Of a stretch of 64,000 nucleotides of DNA, positions 1,682 to 62,888 are shown piece after piece. The stretch is from Candidatus Versatilivorator sp. (lineage in GTDB: Bacteria > Acidobacteriota > Terriglobia > Versatilivoradales > Versatilivoraceae). The first letter of the stretch is position 1, and the number at the start of each line of letters is the position of its first letter. The stretch lies in NCBI GenBank assembly GCA_965198125.1, contig CBDAOQ010000003.1, positions 4,149,659-4,213,658 of the forward strand, read 5' to 3'. The translations under genes and the position numbers were made by a program. The notes under the pieces are model-generated. The model searched no databases and had not been told where the DNA came from. It saw only the letters and a program-made list of their open reading frames with translations.

Positions 1682-1985
1682 CAGAAATCGACCATCCCTT
1701 CGCGACCCTGGCATCCCGTCTCGGTTCACCTCAACGCCTTAGTGTCCCTTCGTGGTCCTTCGTGGATAACTCTTTTTTCTCTTGTTTCAGATAAGCCGGG
1801 CCCCCGCCCTGCCGGGCGGATCATACGAGAGTGAAACAATCGGAAATCGATAATCCTTTCTCGACCTTGGCATCCCGTCGCGGTTAACCTCAACGCCTTA
1901 GTGGCCCTTCGTCGTTCTTCGTGGCCCTTCGTGGATAACTCTTTTTCTTTTGTCTTTTTTCTTTTGTTTCAGACAAGCCGGCTCG
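1682..1985. repeat. two head-to-tail copies (period 159 bp) of a composite G+D repeat unit
   Basis: CAGAAATCGACC at 1682 recurs as CGGAAATCGATA at 1841. Each unit also carries TCAACGCCTTAGTG..CTTCGTGGATAACTCTTTTT..TGTTTCAGATAAGCCGGG, a GC hairpin, then GGATCATACGAGAGTGAAACA. A third, near-identical unit lies at 43992-44165. Confidence 0.9.
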
Positions 1986-4093: not shown

Positions 4094-4129
4094 TTTCGGA
4101 GGTGCGGTTGGCCTGGCAGGACCAGAAAA

Positions 4130-4501
4130 GATATCTACGAAGGGCGAAAAGGCAAAAAGATATCCACGAAGGGCCACGAAGAACGGCGAAGGGCCACTAA
4201 GGGGTTGGAGGAGGCTCGAGAGGGGTTCGCCAAGGGTCGGGAAGGGGGAAGAAGATATCCACGAAGGGCGAAAAGGCAAAAACATATCCACGAAGGGCCA
4301 CGAAGAACGGCGAAGGGCCACGAAGGGGTTGGAGGAGGCTCGATAGGGGTTCGCCAAGGGTCGGGAAGGGGGAAGAAGATATTCACGAAGGGCGAAAAGG
4401 CAAAAAGATATCCACGAAGGGCCACGAAGAACGGCGAAGGGCCACGAAGGGGTTGGAGGAGGCTCGAGAGGGCTCCGCCAAAGGTCGGGAAGGGGGAAGA
4501 A
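4130..4501. repeat. tandem repeat, 124 bp x 3 (family G units)
   Basis: GATATC(T/C)ACGAAGGGCGAAAAGG recurs at 4130, 4254 and 4378, and GATATCCAGGAAGGGG at 4502 marks the start of a degenerate fourth unit. Each unit contains CCACGAAGGGCCACGAAGAACGGCGAAGGGCCAC and GGGGTTGGAGGAGGCTCGAGAGGGGTTCGCCAAGGGTCGGGAAGGGGGAAGAA. A degenerate extension runs to about 4633. Confidence 0.95.
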
Positions 4502-4682
4502 GATATCCAGGAAGGGGCTGAAGTATCTGTCAAGCGGGTAAAAGATTAATCCGCGAAGCGACTCCAAGGGGTTGGAAAAGACTCGAAAGGGGTCCTTGAA
4601 GGGCCACGAAGAAAGACACTAAGGCACGAAATCATGTTCCCGTCGTTCGGTCTCAGCGTCGAGCATGAGTCGATGCCTGATT

Positions 4683-4835
4683 CACATCGATGGACAGGAT
4701 GGACAGGATTTTTCCGGAGACGGCTGGCTTGTGTTCCCGGACATCCTCAAATCCGCACGCGATCATCGCCCGAGTCAGCGTCTCCTGCAGCAGCCTCCCG
4801 TCCTGATTATCCTGTGCATCCTGTGTATCGATGTT
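4683..4835. mobile_element. family A MITE-like element (153 bp) with decayed GxxExxY-type ORF stub
   Basis: Termini are CACATCGATGGACAGGATGGACAGGAT (4683-4709) and ATCCTGTGCATCCTGTGTATCGATGTT (4809-4835), matching 23/27 as inverted repeats. The minus-strand interior reads IDTQDAQDNQDGRLLQETLTRAMIACGFEDVRE. Confidence 0.75.
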
Positions 4836-4981
4836 CCATTTATAGTCCTTCTCGATGGATCTGCCCAGTCGCGGGGGGCGGGCGCCCGGCTCGCAGGCAA
4901 ACGGGAGTTTCCCAAAGGGGACAGGCCGGCTTTTAGAGAAGTCGCCCGCCGGATACCCCCCACCTCACCATCGAGACGACA

Positions 4982-5191
4982 CCCCCGGGAGCGCGGGCGT
5001 CCCGCCCGCATGCTGTCCCTTCGGTTGCCGCTCAGTTTCCCTGCGATGTTGCAGCCGACCGCCCTGCCGGCGAGAACCGCATGGGCCCGGCCGAAGCAGA
5101 GGCAGGGCGCCGCTGCCGGTTGATTCCGGTGGAGGAGATGGTCGAAGCTGCGGGAGGATTTGTGCGGGCGGGACGCCCGCGCTCCCGGGGG
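4982..5191. repeat. family E: perfect 29-bp inverted repeat flanking 152 bp
   Basis: CCCCCGGGAGCGCGGGCGTCCCGCCCGCA at 4982-5010 has its exact reverse complement at 5163-5191. Confidence 0.9.
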
Positions 5192-5316
5192 GGGCTTCCT
5201 CCCATGACAGGGTCACACCAGCGGGACAAAAGTGCAGAAGCATTTTGGAGCCAGTTGTCGTTGAAGGAGGTCCATCAGTCCTCGTGCCTATTCGTGTTCA
5301 TTGGTGGTTCGTCTTC

Positions 5317-13525: not shown

Positions 13526-13703
13526 TTCCTGCCAGCGAGGCAGTCATTATAGCAGAAGAAGCTCGGAGCCGACGCCCCTCGCGCCTTCCTTACGAAAGGA
13601 AACGAGTCCCTGGTCCGGCCGCGGTAACCCCCTCCAGCTTGAGAGTGGCCTTGGCTGTGCCCAGGGGCTGTGGAAAGTTCAAGTCCCCCTGGTGCGGGCT
13701 CCA

Positions 13704-13946
13704 GCCCGCATTTCTCACCAGGACGCTGAGCATAAGGTCGAAACGTGCTTGTCTTTAACATCTTGCGGCGCTTTGTTTGGAGTCTTCAGAGTACAGACTG
13801 AGCTGGGCGCGCCCTGGCTTGTTCTTTTCCCCTCAGCGCGCACATGCTCCCTCGACCGTAGTGCCGGCTACGCTCTTCGGTCGCGAGCACGCGCTGAGGG
13901 AAAAATTCCGGCGCCATGATCGCACCCCCCGGAGAGAAATGCAGGT
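13704..13946. mobile_element. family C element, 243 bp, MITE-like with long internal hairpin
   Basis: Termini are GCCCGCATTTCTCACC (13704-13719) and GGAGAGAAATGCAGGT (13931-13946). The interior is the reverse complement of 29843-30085 and contains the TTTTCCCCTCAGCGCG / CGCGCTGAGGGAAAAA inverted repeat. Confidence 0.85.
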
Positions 13947-13984
13947 TAAGTTCCCTGGTGCAGGCTCCAGTCATTCGTCTTGGG

Positions 13985-21469: not shown

Positions 21470-21675
21470 TCAGGGACTCCCTGCCTGCGGCGGTGAAGGA
21501 CCGTGCCAATGATTGGAGCCGAGATACCGTCCTCCCCAAGGTCGCTCTAAGAGCCTATTCTATAGTCAGGGGGAGCTTTTTGCAAAATTCGCAACGGGGC
21601 AGGTCATTTTGCCGGCAAACGTGATGTTCTGCCTTTTTCAATATCGGGTGCGACCTGGTGAGAAATGCGGGTTCA

Positions 21676-21849
21676 CCACAAAAAGCACAAAAGTCACAAA
21701 ACGAATTTTTCGTAACCCTTCTCGAGATGCCGGTTGCGAAGATATCCATGCAGGTCGAAGGCCGTCTGCCGGATCTGATCACACAAAGCCCGCATGCCTT
21801 GGTCGTTTCTCATCGTTCCGCTCTTTTTGTGTTTTTGTGCCTTTTGTGG
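21676..21849. mobile_element. family B MITE-like element (174 bp)
   Basis: Termini are CCACAAAAAGCACAAAAGTCACAAAA (21676-21701) and TTTTTGTGTTTTTGTGCCTTTTGTGG (21824-21849), in inverted orientation. The same right terminus recurs at 40833-40859. Confidence 0.8.
21694..21813 (-). pseudogene. 39-codon stub resembling the N-terminus of a GxxExxY (PDDEXK_3) protein
   Basis: Too short for the ORF track. Reverse translation gives MRNDQGMRALCDQIRQTAFDLHGYLRNRHLEKGYEKFVL, which matches about 12 of 28 positions of the remembered consensus ELTEKIIGAAFEVHNELGPGFLEKVYEN. The in-frame leader PQKAQKHKK comes from the terminus. Confidence 0.5.
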
Positions 21850-21950
21850 CCATTCCCGGCAAAGATCCCGCTGCCGTATTTTGCAAACGCCTCAGGGGGA
21901 CAAAAGACCAATCCTTTTTCAGGGATCTGCACGATGACTGCAGTCTCGAA

Positions 21951-28206: not shown

Positions 28207-29850
28207 GGGAGGCGGCGGGAAGACAAGGGCATTTTGGTCACGGGATTCAGTTCGGCGAAGCCACTTTGCAGGGAACGATCCGCTTCGGAAGCCGGCCAGC
28301 ACCAGGACCAGGCTCAGGCCCAGGCAGAGGTAGGCGAAGATGTCTCCGTACAGGGAATAGAAGGTGAGCGATTGTCTGAAGCGGAACGGGCTGTCCAGCA
28401 CCGTTCGCCGGTGGAGTTCGGTTCCGGCCAGAACTCTTCCGAAGGGGTCGATGACGGCGCTGATCCCGCTGTTTGCAGCCCGCAAGAGATAGCGCCGGTT
28501 CTCGACAGCCCGCATGCGGGCCATCAGCAGATGTTGGTGGGGAGCAGCCGAATTGCCGAACCAGGTGTCGTTGGTGATGTTGACCAGAACCTCGGCCCCG
28601 TCCGCCACAAAGCGGCGTACCAGATCCGGCACCACCGCCTCGTAACAGATAAAGACTCCCACCTTTTCTCCGGATTCCAGACGGGAAACAACCACCCGGC
28701 TGCCGGGCTGATAGTCCCCTACCCCGGTGGAGATCTTCTCGACGAAAAAGAAAAGCCAGGACCAGGGAACGTATTCCCCGAATGGAACCAGATGCATCTT
28801 GTCATACTGTGCAATCAACTCCCCCTTGGGAGACACCGTTCCGGCGCTGTTGTAGGGACCGGTGTTGGAACCGGCGGCCCCCATCGGCCAGTCTACAAAT
28901 CCGAACAGCAGCGTGGATCCGGAAGCTGCAGCCAGCTCGTTCATCCTTTTCCGGAACGACGGGTCGTCATGATAATAAAACGGCGCCGGTGTCTCCGGCC
29001 AGATGACGAGCCGAACCTGGTGCGGTGCCGGGGCCATCGGGCCGGCGTCAGGGATGGTTTCCGAATCCTCGACCGGGGGGGATAGGGACAGCTCGACCAA
29101 CTCTTCCACGATTTGCGTTTGCGATTGTCGGTCCCAGGGCTGATCCAGAGCGATATGGGTCTGTACCAGTCGCGCATGCGCTTCCCGGGTGTTGCCGGCC
29201 TCCGCCGGTCTCATTCCCACCCAGACCAGACCGGCCACCATCGCCAAGGCGACGGGCAGGCCGCCGATGGCCAGCCTGGACCGGAAGAAACAGCCGGCGA
29301 TCAGAGTGTTGATCAGTACCACCAGAAAGGAGAGCCCATAGACTCCGGTGACGGTGGCAATCTGAGCCAGGTGGACCTCATCGGCCAACGCGTAGCCTGT
29401 CAGGCACCAAGGGAACCCTGTCAGGAGGTATCCCCGAAGGTACTCCGTGGAAACCCAAAGAAAGGGCGCCAGCAGGAAGCAGGACCCGGGAAGCCGCAGC
29501 GAAAGCCGGGCGAACCCCCAGGCGAACAGGCCCGGGAACAGTGCGAGGTAGACGATCAGCAAAGCAAACAGAAAAACGGCTCCGGACCAATGCATGTCGC
29601 TGTAACCCTGCAGTACGGCCAGGATCCAGTAGCAGCATCCGGAAAAAAAAGTGAGGCCGAAGATCCACCCCAGCAAGGCCGCCCGCTGCCAGGCAGTTTC
29701 CCGAAAGAGGGCAATCAACAGGGGAACCAGCGCAACCCAGCTCACCCAGGACAGGGAGAATTTGGGAAAGAGCAGGATCTGCAGGATGCCGCTGGCAACG
29801 GCCAGGAAAAGCTTTGGGCAAAGCCTGAAGCGGTACGGCCTAGCCCGCAT
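28177..29850 (-). CDS. lnt: apolipoprotein N-acyltransferase
   Basis: Multi-TM N-terminus and a CN-hydrolase domain (YDKMHLVPFGEYVP, ICYEAV, NITNDTWFG, RAVENRR). The ATG lies inside a family C terminus. The last 8 codons and the stop come from the IS end. Confidence 0.9.
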   Translation of the reverse strand: MRARPYRFRLCPKLFLAVASGILQILLFPKFSLSWVSWVALVPLLIALFRETAWQRAALLGWIFGLTFFSGCCYWILAVLQGYSDMHWSGAVFLFALLIVYLALFPGLFAWGFARLSLRLPGSCFLLAPFLWVSTEYLRGYLLTGFPWCLTGYALADEVHLAQIATVTGVYGLSFLVVLINTLIAGCFFRSRLAIGGLPVALAMVAGLVWVGMRPAEAGNTREAHARLVQTHIALDQPWDRQSQTQIVEELVELSLSPPVEDSETIPDAGPMAPAPHQVRLVIWPETPAPFYYHDDPSFRKRMNELAAASGSTLLFGFVDWPMGAAGSNTGPYNSAGTVSPKGELIAQYDKMHLVPFGEYVPWSWLFFFVEKISTGVGDYQPGSRVVVSRLESGEKVGVFICYEAVVPDLVRRFVADGAEVLVNITNDTWFGNSAAPHQHLLMARMRAVENRRYLLRAANSGISAVIDPFGRVLAGTELHRRTVLDSPFRFRQSLTFYSLYGDIFAYLCLGLSLVLVLAGFRSGSFPAKWLRRTESRDQNALVFPPPPQGHFMLSSK

Positions 29851-30085
29851 TTCTCACCGGGGGGCATGACAATGGCGCAGGAATTTTTCCCTCAGCGCGT
29901 GCTCGCGAGCGAAGAGCGTAGCGGGGACTACGTTCGAGGGAGCATGTGCGCGCTGAGGGAAAAAGGACAAGCCAGGGCGGGCCCAGCGCCGTCTGTACCC
30001 GCATGCCCTCCAATAAGGGCCAGTAAGGTATTGAAGATAAACGGTTTTTCATAATGGTTCCAGCGGCCCGGTGAGAAATGCGGGC
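29843..30085. mobile_element. family C element, 243 bp
   Basis: Termini GCCCGCATTTCTCACC (29843-29858) and GGTGAGAAATGCGGGC (30070-30085) form a perfect 16-bp TIR. An internal perfect 16-bp inverted repeat pairs TTTTTCCCTCAGCGCG (29884-29899) with CGCGCTGAGGGAAAAA (29949-29964). Confidence 0.9.
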
Positions 30086-30152
30086 TGGGGGAAGGAAACA
30101 CGCGGCGCCTTCAGAAAGGGGAGCATCCGGGGGGGGGCTGAAGCCATGCGCT

Positions 30153-40301: not shown

Positions 40302-40454
40302 GGATCGACCTCCAGCCGGTGTTGCGTTGTCAAATGGAATGGACCTGTTCAGTGGCCAAGGGATTTCGCGAATGAGTGCGTTCAAACAGGCATGCCACCG
40401 CACGGCATGACTCGATCGACTGGAGTGGACAGCTGCTGCAGGCGGCAATTAATG

Positions 40455-41042
40455 GAGCCTTTTGCAAAATTCCGCAGGCAACGGGCTTATGGAGGCTCGG
40501 AACAGGTTTTGATTAACATGGATGCACAGGATGCACAGGATTTTTTCAGGAAACGGCTAGCTTGTAATCCTGAGCTTCCGCAAATCCGCACACGATCATT
40601 GCCGGAGCCGGCTTCTCGTGCAGCAGCGTCCCGTCCTGGATATCCTGTGCATCCTGTGCATCCATGTTTATTATGAGCCTTTTGCAACATTCGCAATCGG
40701 GAATGATATGGAGGCGGCAAAGGTGATGTGCTGCAGGCTCCGGCATTCACCACAAAAAGCACAAGAGACAACAGAAACCACAAAAAGCACAAAACGAGTT
40801 TCTTGATTTCGCGTCTTGCCGATCCGATGGTCCTTTTTGTGTTTTTGTGCCTTTTGTGGCCATTAAGCTTCAGACGGCAAACGGGTTCAGTGTCACCTCA
40901 TCCTTGACCGACTGGGGAGGAAAAACCCTCGATCTGAATAAGGATCGCCCGACTCCGATTTTTGCAAAAGGCTCAATGGATAAAAACATCGATAGACAGG
41001 ATCGCCCGGTTTTTCATCCTGTCCATCCTGTTAATCCATGTT
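40455..41042. repeat. nested repeat array: F - A(154 bp) - F - B(110 bp) - F(inverted) - A(58 bp)
   Basis: F copies at 40455-40485, 40675-40701 and 40955-40974 (inverted); A element at 40515-40668; B element at 40750-40859; minimal A element at 40985-41042. Confidence 0.9.
40515..40668. mobile_element. family A MITE-like element (154 bp), perfect 27-bp TIR
   Basis: AACATGGATGCACAGGATGCACAGGAT at 40515-40541 has its exact reverse complement at 40642-40668. The minus-strand stub reads MDAQDAQDIQDGTLLHEKPAPAMIVCGFAEAQDYKLAVS. Confidence 0.9.
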
Positions 41043-41126: not shown

Positions 41127-41217
41127 TTCTTCGTGTCTCTTCGTCGTCCTTCGTGCCCCTTCGTGGATATCTTTTCTTGTCTCTTCGTGGACCCCCTTCG
41201 TGGATATCTTTTTCCCC
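41127..41217. repeat. family G tract (CTTCGTG-type 9-10-mers)
   Basis: TTCTTCGTGTCTCTTCGTCGTCCTTCGTGCCCCTTCGTGGATATCTTTTCTTGTCTCTTCGTGGACCCCCTTCGTGGATATCTTTTTCCCC. Confidence 0.85.
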
Positions 41218-41249
41218 TTCACTGCTTGTCGGTCTGAGGCACGGCCTTG

Positions 41250-43583: not shown

Positions 43584-44165
43584 TTAGCCCCGCCCCCGCC
43601 CCATACGACGGGGCGGATCATTCGAGAGTGAAACAGGTTTTGTTTTAAGTGGGGCCCCTGCCCTGCCGGGCAGATCATCCGAGGGTGTCAGGGGGCCCCG
43701 CGGTTTTGCCTCACGCGCCTTAGTGGCCCGGCCCTTCGTGGATAACTCTTAAGTGGGGCCCCTGCCCTGCCGGGCAGATCATCCGAGGGTGAAACAGGGT
43801 TGTTTCAGACAAGTGGAGGGTTCCGGGATCAGGCAAGCGCCTTATGACCTGGTTGCACCTTTTGAACGACTGCGCCGAGATCAACAAGATGCTTAACGTG
43901 CCGATCCAAAAACTATCCACTATCCACTATCCACTTAGCCCCGCCCCCGCCCCATACGACGGGGCGGATCATTCGAGAGTGAAACAGGTTTTGTTTCAGA
44001 TAAGCCGGGCCCCCGCCCTGCTGTGCGGATCATACAAGAGTGAAACAATCAGAAATCGATCATCCCTTCGTGACCTTGGCATCCCGTCGCGGTTAACCTC
44101 AACGCCTTAGTGGCCCTTCGTCGTTCTTCGTGGCCCTTCGTGGATAACTCTTTTTTCTTTTGTTT
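43584..44165. repeat. repeat array: five family D hairpin-tail modules, family G and H modules
   Basis: A 62-nt perfect direct repeat lies at 43584-43645 and 43935-43996. A 41-nt perfect direct repeat lies at 43647-43687 and 43751-43791. Heptamer CTATCCA x3 is at 43913-43933. A composite G+D unit at 43992-44165 is near-identical to 1783-1945. Confidence 0.95.
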
Positions 44166-52240: not shown

Positions 52241-52362
52241 GGCTGTTCCGGAACCATCTACCATCCCGCCAGAATAGCAAAAATGGAAATGGCAGCGCAC
52301 CCTTTTCTGGCTGCGGCGGTTCCTCGGAGGAAAGGGGCAGGTAGCGCGGCGCCCAGGCAAGT

Positions 52363-52950
52363 CGGCCCCCCAACCTGGCTGGCGGATCATTCGAGAGTGA
52401 AACAACGGGTCCTTATGCCTATCGGGAGCAGGGGCCATGTCCCGTTAATTCGGTTGGCTGCATCATTGAACATCGATACACAGGATAGACAGGATAAACA
52501 GGACGAGAAGCTGTTGCACAAGAAGCTGACTGGCTCGATAATCGAGGGCGCGTTTGTGGAAAACCTCAGTGTCCTTCGTGGCACTTCACGGATCTCTTTC
52601 GAGTCTTTTCCAACCCCTTGGAGTCCATTCGCGGATTCATCTTTTGCCCTCTTAACAGATCCTTTATCGCCCTTGGTGGAAATCTTTTTCCCCTGAGCCT
52701 TTTGCAAAATTCGGAGTCGGGCGAGATGGGGGCAGAATGCTCCTGCAAAATAACGCCCTCGAAAGGGATCTGCACCTGGCTAGCCATGGGTTTCCCAGGG
52801 ACAACAACTCTTCCCGACAATAAATCCCGCTTCCTAGCGAATTTTGCAAAAGGCTCCCCTTCCCAACCTTTGGCGGATCCCTCTTGAGCTTTCTCCAACC
52901 CCTTCGTGGCCCTTCGTGGATTTCTTTTTTTGGCCTTTGTGGATAACCCT
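52363..52950. repeat. repeat array: D - linker - A(solo end + ORF stub) - G - F..F(162-bp inverted pair) - G
   Basis: GGCGGATCATTCGAGAGTGAAACA is at 52381-52404 and the A terminus at 52469-52495. The G-type segment 52568-52690 matches the reverse complement of 4505-4633, with a 29-nt identical core. A perfect 19-bp inverted repeat pairs GAGCCTTTTGCAAAATTCG (52695-52713) with 52838-52856. Confidence 0.9.
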
Positions 52951-60021: not shown

Positions 60022-61521
60022 ATGGCCGATAACACCGACAGCAGCATCCACCAACGTTTTTCCACGCGATGGGGCCTCCTGGTCAGCCTCCTGGGGGTAG
60101 CCGTCGGTACCGGCAACATCTGGAGATTTCCCCGAATTGCCGCTCAAAACGGCGGCGAGCACGGGTCGGGTGCATTTCTGGTCAGTTGGGTGCTGATACT
60201 GTTTCTGTGGAGTATCCCCTTGATCGTGGCCGAGTACGCCATCGGCCGCCGGAGCCGAAAGGGCCCGGTTGAGGCTCTGGCCGCAATCGGGGGCAGAAAC
60301 TTGATCTGGACGGGCGGTTTTGTCGCCTGTGTCTCCGCGGCCATTACTTTCTACTATGCCGTGGTGGTGGGGTGGTGTCTCTACTATCTGGTGCAGATGC
60401 TCACCGCGCCGCTGCCGCTGTCCACCGAAGCCGCCCTCTCAACCTGGAACCGTTTCCAGGCCTCTGCCTGGCCTTCTTTTTTCCACGCCCTCGCCCTGGT
60501 GCTGTGCGCCCTGGCGATCTGGCGGGGGATCCGCTCCATCGAACGCCTCAACCGCTGGATGATTCCCACCCTGCTGGCGATCATCCTGATCTCGCTGTTT
60601 CGTGCCCTGACCCTCCCCGGCTCCTGGGCGGGGATTGCCTACCTGTTCACTCCCGACTGGGAACAGTTGCTTCAACCCGGAATATGGCTGGAAGCCCTCA
60701 GTCAGAATGCCTGGGACACCGGCGCCGGGTGGGGACTGTTGCTGACTTATGCCGCCTATATGCAGAGGCGGCAGCCCATCGTCAAGAATGCCCTGTTGAC
60801 CGGTATCGGGAACAACCTGGTCTCTTTGCTGGCGGCTTTGATCGTGTTTGGGACGGTCTTTTCGATCCTGCAGACGGAGATGACCCTGTCCCGCCAGGAG
60901 ACTCTCGAGATCCTGCGCTCCAGCGGCCCCGCCTCTACCGGTCTGACTTTGATTTGGATGCCGCAACTGTTCGCCCGCATGTCACTGGGGATCCCCCTCT
61001 CCATCCTGTTTTTCCTGGGACTCTCGCTGGCCGGCTTCAGCTCGCTCATGGCCATGCTGGAATTGCAGGCCCGCGTGCTGGTGGATGCGGGATTGACCCG
61101 ATCCAAGGCGGTTCTGCTGGTTGGAGTCGTCAGTTATCTGCTCGGCATTCCCTCTGCGCTCAGCCTTTCCTTTTTCGCAAACCAGGACTTCGTCTGGGGT
61201 GTGGCCTTGATGATCTCGGGGGCACTGGTCGCCTTTGCCGTGACGCGATACGGTTGTGCGCGATTGCGAGGGGAGGAGCTGTCGGCTGATTCCGGCGACT
61301 GGTCCCCGGGGCGCTGGTGGGATGCCTCCATGAAGTACGTGGTCCCGGTAGGCGCATCCCTGTTGCTGATGTGGTGGCTGACCCTCTCGGCCACGGTGTA
61401 CGCCCCGGATCAATGGTACAATCCCCTGCTGCCCTACAGCGTAATGACCTGCCTGGTGCAGTGGGGGGCCGTATTGACAGTGCTGTGGCTCCTCAACCGT
61501 CGCCTTTCCAGGCGCAGGTAA
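60022..61521 (+). CDS. sodium-dependent transporter, SNF (neurotransmitter:sodium symporter) family
   Basis: VGTGNIWRFPRIAAQNGG signature; about 11-12 TM helices. Confidence 0.9.
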   Translation: MADNTDSSIHQRFSTRWGLLVSLLGVAVGTGNIWRFPRIAAQNGGEHGSGAFLVSWVLILFLWSIPLIVAEYAIGRRSRKGPVEALAAIGGRNLIWTGGFVACVSAAITFYYAVVVGWCLYYLVQMLTAPLPLSTEAALSTWNRFQASAWPSFFHALALVLCALAIWRGIRSIERLNRWMIPTLLAIILISLFRALTLPGSWAGIAYLFTPDWEQLLQPGIWLEALSQNAWDTGAGWGLLLTYAAYMQRRQPIVKNALLTGIGNNLVSLLAALIVFGTVFSILQTEMTLSRQETLEILRSSGPASTGLTLIWMPQLFARMSLGIPLSILFFLGLSLAGFSSLMAMLELQARVLVDAGLTRSKAVLLVGVVSYLLGIPSALSLSFFANQDFVWGVALMISGALVAFAVTRYGCARLRGEELSADSGDWSPGRWWDASMKYVVPVGASLLLMWWLTLSATVYAPDQWYNPLLPYSVMTCLVQWGAVLTVLWLLNRRLSRRR

Positions 61522-61522
61522 G

Positions 61523-61565
61523 TCCGCCCCAGGCCGTTCCGGGCGGATCATACGAGAGTGAAACA
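61523..61565 (+). repeat. family D hairpin-tail module directly after the transporter stop codon
   Basis: CCGCCC (61524-61529) pairs with GGGCGG (61541-61546), followed by ATCATACGAGAGTGAAACA. Confidence 0.8.
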
Positions 61566-61629
61566 ACGAATCTTCATGGCCTGTCGGGAACAAGGGCCAA
61601 GTCGTGCTAAACCGGTTTTCTACTTATTG

Positions 61630-61837
61630 AACATGGATACACAGGATAGACAGGATAAACAGCACGAGAGGCTGCGCCACAGGAAGCAGACCCGCTCGAT
61701 GATCGGGTGGGTGTTGGAAGTAATCCAAGAGCCCGGGAGCGGGTTTTGGGAAATCCGTGTTGGAACAGAGGCGATGGTTGAACTCATGACGGTGGAAACT
61801 CTCGCCAAATAATCCTGTGCATCCTGTGCATCCATGT
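61630..61837. mobile_element. family A MITE-like element (208 bp), longest interior
   Basis: Termini are AACATGGATACACAGGATAGACAGGAT (61630-61656) and ATCCTGTGCATCCTGTGCATCCATGT (61812-61837), matching 23/26 as inverted repeats. Confidence 0.85.
61633..61812 (+). pseudogene. 59-codon N-terminal fragment of a GxxExxY (PDDEXK_3)-type ORF
   Basis: MDTQDRQDKQHERLRHRKQTRSMIGWVLEVIQEPGSGFWEIRVGTEAMVELMTVETLAK. The stretch IGxxxEVxxExGxGxxE lines up with IIGAAIEVHxxLGPGLLESxY. The nuclease core is absent. Confidence 0.55.
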
Positions 61838-61937
61838 CAATTAGCCGTCTAACTATGCTTGACTTTGAACGGGTTTCCCGCCACGCGGCACAAGGCGTTG
61901 TTTCAAATAAGCCCTGAATCCGAGCTGGTGCCGAGCC

Positions 61938-62888
61938 ATGAAACGAATCCGCGTCATTGACTCCCATACCGGCGGCGAACCGACACGGGTGGTGGTCGAG
62001 GGGGGTCCCGACCTCGGAACCGGCCCCATCGCCGAAAGACTGATTCGTTTTCGCGACCGATACGATGGTTTTCGCTCGGCGGTCGTCAACGAGCCGCGCG
62101 GCTCCGATACTCTGGTGGGGGCGCTTCTGTGTAAGCCCTGCGAGGCGGATTGCGCTGCCGGGGTGATTTTCTTCAATAATGTCGGCTATCTGCGGATGTG
62201 CGGTCACGGCGCCATCGGGGTTGTCTCCACGCTCGCCCATCTTGGCCGCATCAAGCCCGGCCGGCATCGCCTGGAAACCCCCGCGGGACCCATTGCAGCC
62301 AGGTTGGAAGCATCGGGTGCAGTGACCATTCAAAACGTGGCCAGCTATCGATGGGCCAAGGGAATCCCATTGAAACTGGAGGGTTACGGTCGCTTGACAG
62401 GGGATGTGGCCTGGGGAGGCAACTGGTTTTTCCTGAGCGAAGACCACGGCCTTCACCTGTCCTTGGAGAACATCGACCGCTTGCTCGACGCTACCTGGAA
62501 GATCAGGAGAGAACTCCGGGAGCAAGGCATCAGGGGCAGGGACGGTCAAGAGATCGATCACATCGCATTGTTCGCTCCTCCGCAACGGACCGATGCGGAT
62601 GCCAAAAACTTTGTCCTGTGCCCCGGGGGCTCCTACGACCGCTCACCCTGCGGGACCGGCACCTCTGCAAAAGTCGCTTGCCTGGTCGCCGCCGGCCGTT
62701 TCGGTGAGGGCCGGACCTGGCGGCAGGAAAGCATCCTCGGCAGCCTGTTCGAGGCCACGGTCCGTGTCGATGGAGGTCGCATTGTGCCTTCCATCAAGGG
62801 GTCGGCTTTTGTCACCGCGGAGGCAACCCTGCTGCTCGACCCGCGAGATCCGATGAGGATGGGACTCGATCCAGCCGCCAGTCCCTGA
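61938..62888 (+). CDS. proline racemase / 4-hydroxyproline 2-epimerase family protein
   Basis: VIDSHTGGEPTRVV opening. Both catalytic Cys contexts are present (RMCGHGAIG and DRSPCGTGTSAK). Confidence 0.88.
   Translation: MKRIRVIDSHTGGEPTRVVVEGGPDLGTGPIAERLIRFRDRYDGFRSAVVNEPRGSDTLVGALLCKPCEADCAAGVIFFNNVGYLRMCGHGAIGVVSTLAHLGRIKPGRHRLETPAGPIAARLEASGAVTIQNVASYRWAKGIPLKLEGYGRLTGDVAWGGNWFFLSEDHGLHLSLENIDRLLDATWKIRRELREQGIRGRDGQEIDHIALFAPPQRTDADAKNFVLCPGGSYDRSPCGTGTSAKVACLVAAGRFGEGRTWRQESILGSLFEATVRVDGGRIVPSIKGSAFVTAEATLLLDPRDPMRMGLDPAASP

Follow-up and report, generated by a model that had tools for sequence, protein, structure and literature searches.

In REPIN-RAYT systems, REP doublets are dispersed in the genome and the RAYT gene, which encodes an HUH/Y1 transposase of the IS200/IS605 type, is flanked by the same REPs. 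Free-standing homing endonuclease genes, PD-(D/E)XK types included, are not known to carry terminal inverted repeats. TnsA of Tn7 requires TnsB for its action, and no cognate repeats are known to frame Rpn proteins. Type I MITEs arise by internal deletion and retain the terminal inverted repeats at both ends (PMC10969869), and Rickettsia palindromic elements are found in frame within protein-coding genes, with the open reading frame (ORF) unbroken (PMC10969869). In a 2012 survey of the PD-(D/E)XK superfamily, GxxExxY / PDDEXK_3 is listed as 'unknown' and PDDEXK_2 as a putative transposase (PMC3424549); our literature search found no paper on GxxExxY function or mobility.

Here we describe repeats of a family, named family A, in a 64,000-nucleotide stretch of an acidobacterial chromosome (the window). 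Family A displays several of the features by which MITEs are recognized, namely inverted termini, small size, absence of a complete gene, many copies and a gene-bearing relative that shares the termini, but not the target-site duplication that flanks MITE copies. With moderate confidence, we interpret its members as non-autonomous, MITE-like derivatives of a ~470-bp GxxExxY cassette, whose nuclease is inferred to recognize the termini and drive their spread.

Family A elements in the window

The window has a G+C content of ~60% and carries ordinary chromosomal genes. It shares synteny with Candidatus Versatilivorator sp. OZ242296 (Acidobacteriota, Terriglobia) and the Terriglobia MAG OY762429, the nucleotide identity being 80-86%. 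Matches to the family A terminus ATGGATRCACAGGATRSACAGGAT with at most 3 mismatches number 8 in the window versus 0 in 100 dinucleotide-preserving shuffles. The family A and B elements reported in a first-pass annotation of this DNA are all present, their coordinates being off by only 1-4 bases (Table 1), and our translations of the A1 stub and of the other stub ORFs agree with its readings.

Table 1. Positions of repeat elements and associated features in the window.
Feature	Position	Strand	Length	Description
Element A1	61631..61837	+	207 bp	
Element A2	40516..40667	-	152 bp	30-nt arms, 97% complementary
Element A3	4684..4834	-	151 bp	Deletion class shared with A2
Element A4	40986..41041	.	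56 bp	Termini-only hairpin; left arm partly decayed
Element A5	52470..52560	+		Left terminus, ~25 homologous codons, junction with inverted family C repeat
Element B1	21672..21852	-		Termini of CACAAAARN 9-mers (CACAAAAAG-type); nested in outer repeat 21572-21897 with GAGCTTTTTGCAAAATTCG-type ends
Element B2	40746..40863	-	~118 bp	Short form, CACAAAAAG-type; nested in repeat 40674-40975 with GAGCCTTTTGCAA-type ends
A1 composite, left outer arm	61559..61630	+		Begins TGAAACAACG, inverted partner of 61896-61905
A1 composite, right outer arm	61838..61905	+		Ends CGTTGTTTCA
GC-rich hairpin followed by GGATCATACGAGAG	61523..61558	+		Abuts the stop codon that ends the upstream transporter gene

The neighbours of element A1 are genes for an SNF-family transporter (60022-61521) and a proline-racemase-like protein (61938-62888). 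Its termini (left, 61631-61656; right, 61812-61837) form 26-nt arms that are 88% complementary, and its stub ORF (61633-61812) opens with an ATG at 61633 and runs for 59 codons up to a TAA at 61810-61812. A1 keeps the N-terminal ~45 codons of a GxxExxY gene together with a ~28-nt piece of the E-x-K region. The A2 stub ORF, MDAQDAQDIQDGTLLHEKPAPAMIVCGFAEAQDYKLAVS, which lies on the minus strand, joins the N-terminal ~30 codons of the full-length gene to its final ~12 codons; the identical 39-residue peptide is found in P0004, and many variants differ from it by one or two residues. A3 displays the ATCGAT variant at the left and right terminus alike, and has lost its start codon because both termini carry the ACATCGAT variant. 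A4 is a member of a 60-79 bp class that is found in other genomes. A5 had been read as a solo end, and the terminus search of the window detected no right terminus for it, but this reading is too simple, as the element is joined to a family C repeat, and this chimera is recurrent (P0040, P0083 and P0084). As initially reported, a full-length GxxExxY gene is absent from the window, in whose six-frame translation a subfamily HMM matches N-terminal stubs only.

The repeated units exceed the elements themselves. A1 is enclosed by an outer inverted repeat, TGAAACAACG...CGTTGTTTCA (61559-61905), and copy-to-copy homology extends beyond the inverted termini: the ~370-bp A1 composite (61540-61910) is found again in L002, L007, L033, L083 and L087 with 83-95% identity, and a copy in OZ242296 that is 95.5% identical has unrelated neighbour genes. 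A2 is enclosed by a ~530-bp composite (40443-40977), which is recurrent too. Since outer arms and composites of 370 and 530 bp are repeated here in addition to the termini, some of the spread may be that of larger units. The hairpin-GGATCATACGAGAG module (families D4, D5 and D11) is present in ten copies in the window; an Rfam scan of the whole window, this module included, retrieved no family at gathering score.

Family B was initially described as repeating the family A pattern with a different 9-mer terminus. The architecture is indeed the same, but an origin from GxxExxY genes is not supported at a significant level: the interior of B1 shows only a weak likeness to the GxxExxY N-terminus, and comparison of family B with GxxExxY gives an hhalign probability of 2% (E = 0.023, correct register) and an HMM E-value of 7.9. 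The short form represented by B2 is found again in metagenome loci L111, L117, L118 and L122. No full-length family B parent was found in a metagenome scan, which gave 14 loci containing short stubs only.

Stubs are remnants of a GxxExxY gene

Pfam and NCBIfam profiles do not match the window stubs at E-values up to 10. By contrast, a subfamily HMM detects A1 (E = 4.4e-8), A3 (1.9e-4), A5 (1.8e-3) and, weakly, A2 (0.33), and hhalign comparison of the stub alignment with the family alignment yields 98.7% probability (E = 2.7e-16). The GxxExxY likeness originally claimed for the stubs thus eludes the standard profiles and is recovered by the more specific ones, as well as by DNA alignment to L001, a metagenome locus that carries a full-length gene. 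A2 and A3 correspond to L001 from 1877 to ~1972 followed by its 3' part (58/65 identical positions between the A2 3' half and L001 2289-2353; 55/62 between A3 and 2290-2353). A1 corresponds to L001 1877-2010, then 2142-2169 (23/28) and the right terminus, while a 249-bp form in L090 keeps ~72 codons.

A search with the alignment of four stubs retrieved 109 short proteins (31-104 residues) from many assemblies, all of which are short stubs or GxxExxY fragments, and none of which contains another domain. The single PF13366 scorer among them, P0057, comes from locus L001, the others being too short. On this alignment evidence, the window stubs are gene remnants and not members of the GxxExxY family, and derivation of the family A window elements from a full-length cassette by internal deletion is essentially established.

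Architecture of the parent cassette and of its protein

The first-pass annotation predicted a full-length parent framed by inverted 9-mer doublets, a reading that is supported. Such a unit is found in L001 (1882-2353), where 472 bp are framed by a perfect 26/26 inverted repeat, ACATGGATGCACAGGATGCACAGGAT, and hold a single ORF with one frameshift; once repaired, this ORF encodes a GxxExxY protein. Four further full-length arrangements likewise have DNA-level termini, namely L104/L105 (one locus from two samples, 99.8% identical), L106, L107 and L108. The TIGR04256 scores of the repaired L001 protein, of its intact relative P0110 and of P0224 are 142-144 bits, compared with a cut-off of 35, and the match spans residues 19-131 only. 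PDDEXK_3/TIGR04256 is the sole domain of the cassette, in which a recognized transposase is absent. From sequence evidence, it is essentially established that the family A cassette is a unit of ~470 bp in which a single gene for a ~125-residue GxxExxY PD-(D/E)XK nuclease lies between inverted termini. Full-length gene and stubs may coexist on one contig, as P0119 does with P0055 and P0080, and P0113 with P0106.

Used as a query, the repaired L001 protein retrieves 2,598 PF13366 proteins at E ≤ 1e-10. Among the 120 closest (60-90% identity, each with a precomputed PF13366 assignment), 98 start with MDxQDxQD, in agreement with the early proposal that the termini encode the odd N-terminus, and 38 end with NPVHPVHPC, which is the translated right terminus; the ORF therefore spans the unit from one terminus to the other. 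Both the MDxQDxQD head and the NPVHPVHPC tail are by-products of the DNA repeat, since the start codon is part of the left terminus and the frame often continues through the right one.

The AlphaFold model of the cassette protein (pLDDT of 78) has a confident core and values below 50 over residues 1-12 and 136-158, which the termini encode. Foldseek retrieves fold matches with Cas4, lambda exonuclease and RecB-type nuclease domains, which are generic nucleases; in the PDB, lambda exonuclease and Cas4 (4ic1) match best, at a TM of ~0.45. The PD-(D/E)XK catalytic residues are conserved, with D79 and E89-L90-K91 unchanged across 44 sequences. PADLOC has no matching model for this protein, and a sequence search of the PDB with it gave nothing useful.

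Anatomy of the termini

Comparison of 57 paired elements shows that terminus positions 1-8 (ACATGGAT), 11-17 and 20-26 (ACAGGAT twice) are near-invariant, and that positions 9-10 and 18-19 vary freely, with no covariation between arms. The conserved terminus unit is thus a heptamer, ACAGGAT, copies of which follow the terminal ACATGGAT every 9 bp. In the translated motif D-x-Q-D, the invariant A of positions 11 and 20 closes the variable codon. The invariance of this third-codon-position base, together with the absence of arm covariation, points to a constraint on DNA rather than on the peptide or on stem pairing. Such a DNA-level constraint on the heptamer fits a protein recognition site every 9 bp, for which there are no binding data. 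A hairpin stem was rejected as the conserved feature, since the variable dinucleotides of both arms fail to covary.

The first-pass annotation had also raised target duplications as a possible trace of insertion. None is supported: at lengths of 2-5 nt and at every boundary offset, nothing rises above the shuffled expectation, and the best 2-mer signal (17/54 versus 9.7 expected) equals the shuffle maximum. CATG was considered as a duplicated target (ACATGT) and discarded; where one end of an element has the ACATCGAT variant, its opposite end has the mirror form ATCGATGT, so that the bases in question are repeated in inverted and not in direct orientation and are part of the inverted termini.

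Size classes and distribution across genomes

The sizes of the 57 paired elements cluster at ~150-156 bp (28 elements; 34 when those of 143-149 bp are included), ~205-217 bp (9) and 60-79 bp (9). Internal deletions always keep both termini, and each class is amplified in many unrelated contexts. The series had first been read as the decay of an element with terminal inverted repeats into MITEs. Internal deletion and the MITE-like outcome are upheld, but the sizes form discrete, amplified classes rather than the products of random decay, which implies that each deletion form has itself multiplied.

Exact termini are present in at least 100 genome blocks of 8 kb and span ten or more phylum-level lineages. 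Among the hosts are Acidobacteriota, Chloroflexota, Latescibacterota, Verrucomicrobiota (Opitutales), Planctomycetota (Phycisphaerae) and Gemmatimonadota, as well as Gamma- and Betaproteobacteria, Desulfobacterales, Lentisphaerales and Candidatus Spongiihabitans, and many are represented by closed chromosomes from independent long-read assemblies. Judging by record names only, some of the source records, such as Candidatus Spongiihabitans, are presumably sponge symbionts. In other phyla, termini are often solo or placed around unrelated interiors, so that sharing across phyla may owe as much to conservation of recognition sites as to recent transfer. Plasmids rarely carry relatives, and none was found in phage records or viral contigs. 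Derivation from a larger autonomous element, in which the termini would enclose a classical transposase, was considered and rejected, as no transposase or other enzyme gene lies between a terminus pair among the 100 loci listed.

Insertion sites and empty alleles

Family A copies sit in differing gene contexts, and orthologous sites can differ in their element content. This is the case for the site shared by the window (21692) and L051 (4230), where the difference resembles recombination between repeat termini. At the orthologous site of L032 and L074, the termini are 100% identical and the interiors belong to different size classes.

Short family A hairpins are found in frame in a loop of hsdM in L096, L090 and L104/L105. 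L103 provides an empty hsdM allele, comparison with which shows that 8 codons have been replaced by 27, which is not a simple insertion. Full-length cassettes lie between hsdR and hsdM in L104 and L108, and in L108 the ATG of the right terminus doubles as the hsdM start codon. Cassettes are also located between gspE and gspF, with three tandem stubs before them; the presence of a full-length gene at this same position in L106 and L107, which represent two genomes, suggests long residence there.

For family A, none of the pairs compared (L004/L101, L009/L017, L032/L074 and window/L051) provided an empty site exact to the nucleotide, each being rearranged, replaced or occupied on both sides. In Sphingomonas, the fabD-fabG spacer is 464 nt with the cassette in Sphingomonas parapaucimobilis versus ~32 nt in S. 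paeninsulae, a gain of ~432 nt to be compared with a terminus-to-terminus length of ~436 nt. At the level of nucleotide comparison, this demonstrates a single clean cassette-sized insertion.

Distant GxxExxY genes

A sample of nine plasmid GxxExxY genes sharing 38-50% identity with P0110 indicates that association with short tandem repeats extends well beyond family A. Tandem 9-mers flank eight of the nine genes. They are inverted around four (Bacteroides, Bernardetia, Treponema and Sphingomonas), and form downstream hairpin arrays at two, both of them Gemmatirosa copies. Two further genes have direct repeats, of 22 nt in Fusobacteria and in the form of ~70-nt flanks with tandem 9-mers in Prevotella; flanking 9-mers are absent only from the Persicobacter gene. 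The 9-mers differ by clade (CACAGGAT, CACAGAGGA, CACGCGAAG, CACGGAT and others). The initial proposal that intact GxxExxY genes sit between inverted termini is borne out by L001 and its kin and also in distant clades, except that two distant genes have direct instead of inverted repeats and one has none.

Discussion

In the interpretation that we favour, the heptamer arrays would be binding sites for the cassette's own nuclease, which would cut at or near them and so promote the spread of the cassette and, in trans, of its gene-less derivatives. Integration would proceed via break repair or gene conversion, in a homing-like manner, rather than via a DDE-type staggered cut; this route seems the likelier one because target duplication is lacking and copies are often inside palindromic repeats or in tandem. 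That the nuclease drives element movement remains an inference which could go either way, as there is no biochemical or genetic evidence that links it to the termini. We put forward only tentatively the broader possibility that GxxExxY proteins are the engines of an unrecognized class of minimal mobile elements of ~440-470 bp, in which the nuclease would recognize inverted, clade-specific 9-mer arrays. If this were true, such units and their derivatives would slip between operon genes and in frame into genes in many phyla. It would also explain the function of the large GxxExxY family and the origin of many low-complexity protein heads and tails, and of several intergenic and in-frame palindromic repeat families.

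The GxxExxY gene might instead be cargo, the 9-mer termini being recognized by an unlinked transposase or recombinase, or by host recombination, which would move the cassette and its derivatives, while the nuclease would serve a selfish or host role such as addiction or defence. The missing target duplication speaks for such an arrangement, and so do the generic nuclease matches of the fold search and the many termini that, in other phyla, are solo or frame unrelated interiors. Cassettes moreover frequently occupy a position in restriction-modification operons, as at hsdR|hsdM in L104 and L108, and we know of no small (~125-residue) PD-(D/E)XK nuclease that acts alone as a transposase. We nonetheless regard a cargo role as unlikely, though it cannot be dismissed. 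No other enzyme gene was seen within terminus pairs in the 100 loci listed, and all 109 proteins retrieved with the terminus-encoded peptide are short stubs or GxxExxY fragments devoid of other domains. The ORF fills the unit end to end, as transposases do in minimal insertion sequences, and PADLOC provides no matching model. In addition, the link between the gene family and flanking 9-mers persists across phyla while the 9-mers themselves differ by clade, as would fit a cognate pair of protein and site.

It is improbable, in our judgement, that the 9-mer arrays are merely structural or regulatory palindromes (REP-like sites, terminators or a start-hiding mRNA panhandle) spread by ordinary recombination, with the genes propagated by duplication and horizontal transfer. 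Several observations lend themselves to this explanation: the elements are intergenic and often directly 3' of stop codons, hsdM in L108 uses the right-terminus ATG as its start codon, one orthologous site has 100% identical termini around changed interiors, and one orthologous difference resembles recombination at repeat termini. However, the variable positions of the arms do not covary, which places the constraint on sequence and not on pairing, and deletions always retain both termini, each class being amplified in unrelated contexts. Short forms are also found within coding sequence, and the fabD|fabG spacer of Sphingomonas gained a unit of terminus-to-terminus length. Finally, chance or assembly artefacts as the source of the stub likeness and of the inverted termini are virtually ruled out, for although standard Pfam and NCBIfam profiles miss the stubs, they are refuted by the shuffles (8 termini versus 0), the hhalign probability of 98.7%, the alignment of stub DNA to both ends of the full-length gene and the recurrence of the elements in many independent long-read chromosome assemblies.

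A cassette, its cognate arrays and amplified gene-less derivatives turn the 'unknown function' of GxxExxY proteins into a concrete hypothesis open to experimental test. Should the nuclease drive spread, it would represent a new enzymatic route to DNA mobility, and the cassette would be the smallest self-contained bacterial element known to us. Whatever the mechanism, these repeats account for annotation oddities such as short ORFs that start with MDAQDAQD or end with NPVHPVHPC and extra low-complexity loops in HsdM, and they provide a marker for horizontal exchange among co-resident bacteria.

Comparison with known systems

The cassette protein belongs to the same nuclease superfamily as TnsA of Tn7 and the Rpn/YhgA-like PDDEXK_2 group, and like them is linked to mobile or recombining DNA; TnsA and Rpn/YhgA-like proteins are nonetheless assigned to Pfam families other than PDDEXK_3. 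As with free-standing homing endonuclease genes, a nuclease gene is wedged in the same orientation into conserved operons (hsdR|hsdM, gspE|gspF and fabD|fabG) without target duplication. Homing endonuclease genes, in contrast, are not known to leave amplified families of deletion derivatives. The hairpins of family A in frame in hsdM recall Rickettsia palindromic elements, which are without a known gene-bearing parent, whereas that of family A has been identified.

REPIN-RAYT systems resemble the present one in their short palindromic doublets between genes, in the single gene framed by inverted copies and in the absence of target duplication, and the termini-only hairpins of 60-79 bp are reminiscent of REPINs. 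The protein sets the two apart, as that of the cassette has a restriction-endonuclease-like PD-(D/E)XK fold, unlike RAYT. The dispersed elements of family A furthermore retain gene remnants, and the cassette ORF overlaps the repeats, which is not the case in REPIN-RAYT systems.

With insertion sequences and their type I MITEs, the cassette has in common its terminal inverted repeats and a single ORF occupying the whole unit. To our knowledge, a gene-bearing unit of ~440-470 bp is smaller than any known autonomous insertion sequence. It encodes only a PD-(D/E)XK nuclease of ~125 residues in place of the DDE, HUH, serine or tyrosine enzyme of insertion sequences and, unlike these elements and MITEs, it lacks target duplication and has termini made of tandem heptamer arrays. 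As in type I MITEs, the gene-less members of family A arise by internal deletion, outnumber their parent and fall into discrete sizes.

Full-length cassettes and extra in-frame segments in HsdM

Intact GxxExxY genes framed by family A termini, the inverted 9-mer-doublet ends of the short elements derived from this nuclease cassette by deletion, occur at loci outside the window that include L106, L107 and L108. In L106 and L107, the intact gene is immediately preceded by three tandem family A stubs (truncated GxxExxY ORFs), whose period in L107 is 264 nt, and stubs and gene together occupy the identical position between gspE and gspF in two different genomes. At L108, a cassette of 141 residues fills the gap from the hsdR stop codon to the hsdM start codon. 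The start codon called for hsdM is an ATG inside the right terminus CCATCCATGT, and the palindromic CATG present at both cassette ends means that an outward-reading start is on offer.

One loop of the widespread HsdM methylase (proteins P0230-P0349), canonically ...AYKHILRANTDAKGHSTLTPDEK..., is a hotspot for extra in-frame segments, which are present in about 40 of 120 homologues. These segments derive from several palindromic repeat families and are of the types DxQD..PVHP, TKVTK..PFVA, GEGRGEG, SDPSDPS, ADCGL..QSAIQN and KDEGRRM..SSFIPH. A second family A hairpin lies in frame near the HsdM C terminus in L096. Comparison of the hsdM loop of L103 with those of L096 and L090 reveals that the replaced or abutted sequence resembles the element's own end (AACACCGACGCCAAGGGC versus AACATGGATGCACAGGAT), and a similar likeness is found at the L108 hsdM start (ATGCTTGAC versus ATGTTAGAT). 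Judged from sequence alone, both may reflect microhomology at integration, or coincidence.

Coordinates of repeats, elements and extra segments
Feature	Locus	Positions (strand)
Intact GxxExxY gene with upstream stubs	L106	1733-2487
Intact GxxExxY gene with upstream stubs	L107	1707-2498
Cassette between hsdR and hsdM	L108	2489-2926
Extra HsdM-loop segments	L096	3404-3474 (-)
	L090	5335-5400 (-)
	L104	2100-2170
Family C	window	1728-1950; 4128-4516; 41129-41220; 43730-43750; 44106-44160; 52560-52690; 52880-52950
Hairpin module, GGATCAT(A/T/C)CGAGAGTGAAACA	window	1791-1851; 43584-43645; 43645-43687; 43749-43791; 43935-43996; 44000-44060; 52351-52417; 61512-61578
Inverted GAGCCTTTTGCAAAATTCG ends	window	21572-21897; 40452-40977; 52695-52856
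CCCGCATTTCTCACC-type ends	window	13697-13950; 29836-30089
Palindrome GACGACACCCCCGGGAGCGCGGGCGTCCCGCCCGCA	window	4975-5198
34-mer of GACGACACCCCCGGGAGCGCGGGCGTCCCGCCCGCA	L001	72-783
Tandem short-repeat motifs	L073	1800-4300

Other repeats and nested palindromes

Family C, a third repeat family, consists of CCACGAAGG-type 9/10-mers and includes an array of three 124-bp units arranged head-to-tail; its translation (…STKGHEERRRATKG…) is reminiscent of the low-complexity heads of small ORFs, and its parent gene has not been identified. A recurrent module consists of a GC-rich hairpin followed by the tabulated motif, often immediately 3' of a stop codon. Its TGAAACA end pairs with the ...TGTTTCA that terminates neighbouring repeats, and no Rfam family reached its gathering score for this module in a scan of the window.

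A further inverted-repeat element of about 250 bp, with CCCGCATTTCTCACC-type ends, fills its site in the window and is absent from orthologous sites in L056 and L038, L056 retaining just 15 nt (AAATGCGGGCTAGGG) from one of the two ends. Adjoining the family A element A3 is a palindrome, rich in GC and with arms of 36 nt (GACGACACCCCCGGGAGCGCGGGCGTCCCGCCCGCA), whose 34-mer occurs in 5 irregularly spaced copies in the parent cassette locus, L001; the unit of A3 and palindrome recurs at 94% identity in L031. Several tandem motifs (CACGGATNN 9-mers, about six repeats of CACAAAGG 8-mers, and GGAATTA 7-mers) share a single 8-kb block in L073 (Opitutales), where solo family A termini adjoin them.

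Family B elements, which have CACAAAARN 9-mer termini, are themselves enclosed by elements with inverted GAGCCTTTTGCAAAATTCG ends, and the one starting at 40452 also encloses the family A element A2. This composite of about 530 bp has copies of 82-90% identity in L010, L012, L025, L039, L043 and L051. Palindrome nested within palindrome seems to be the rule in the window.
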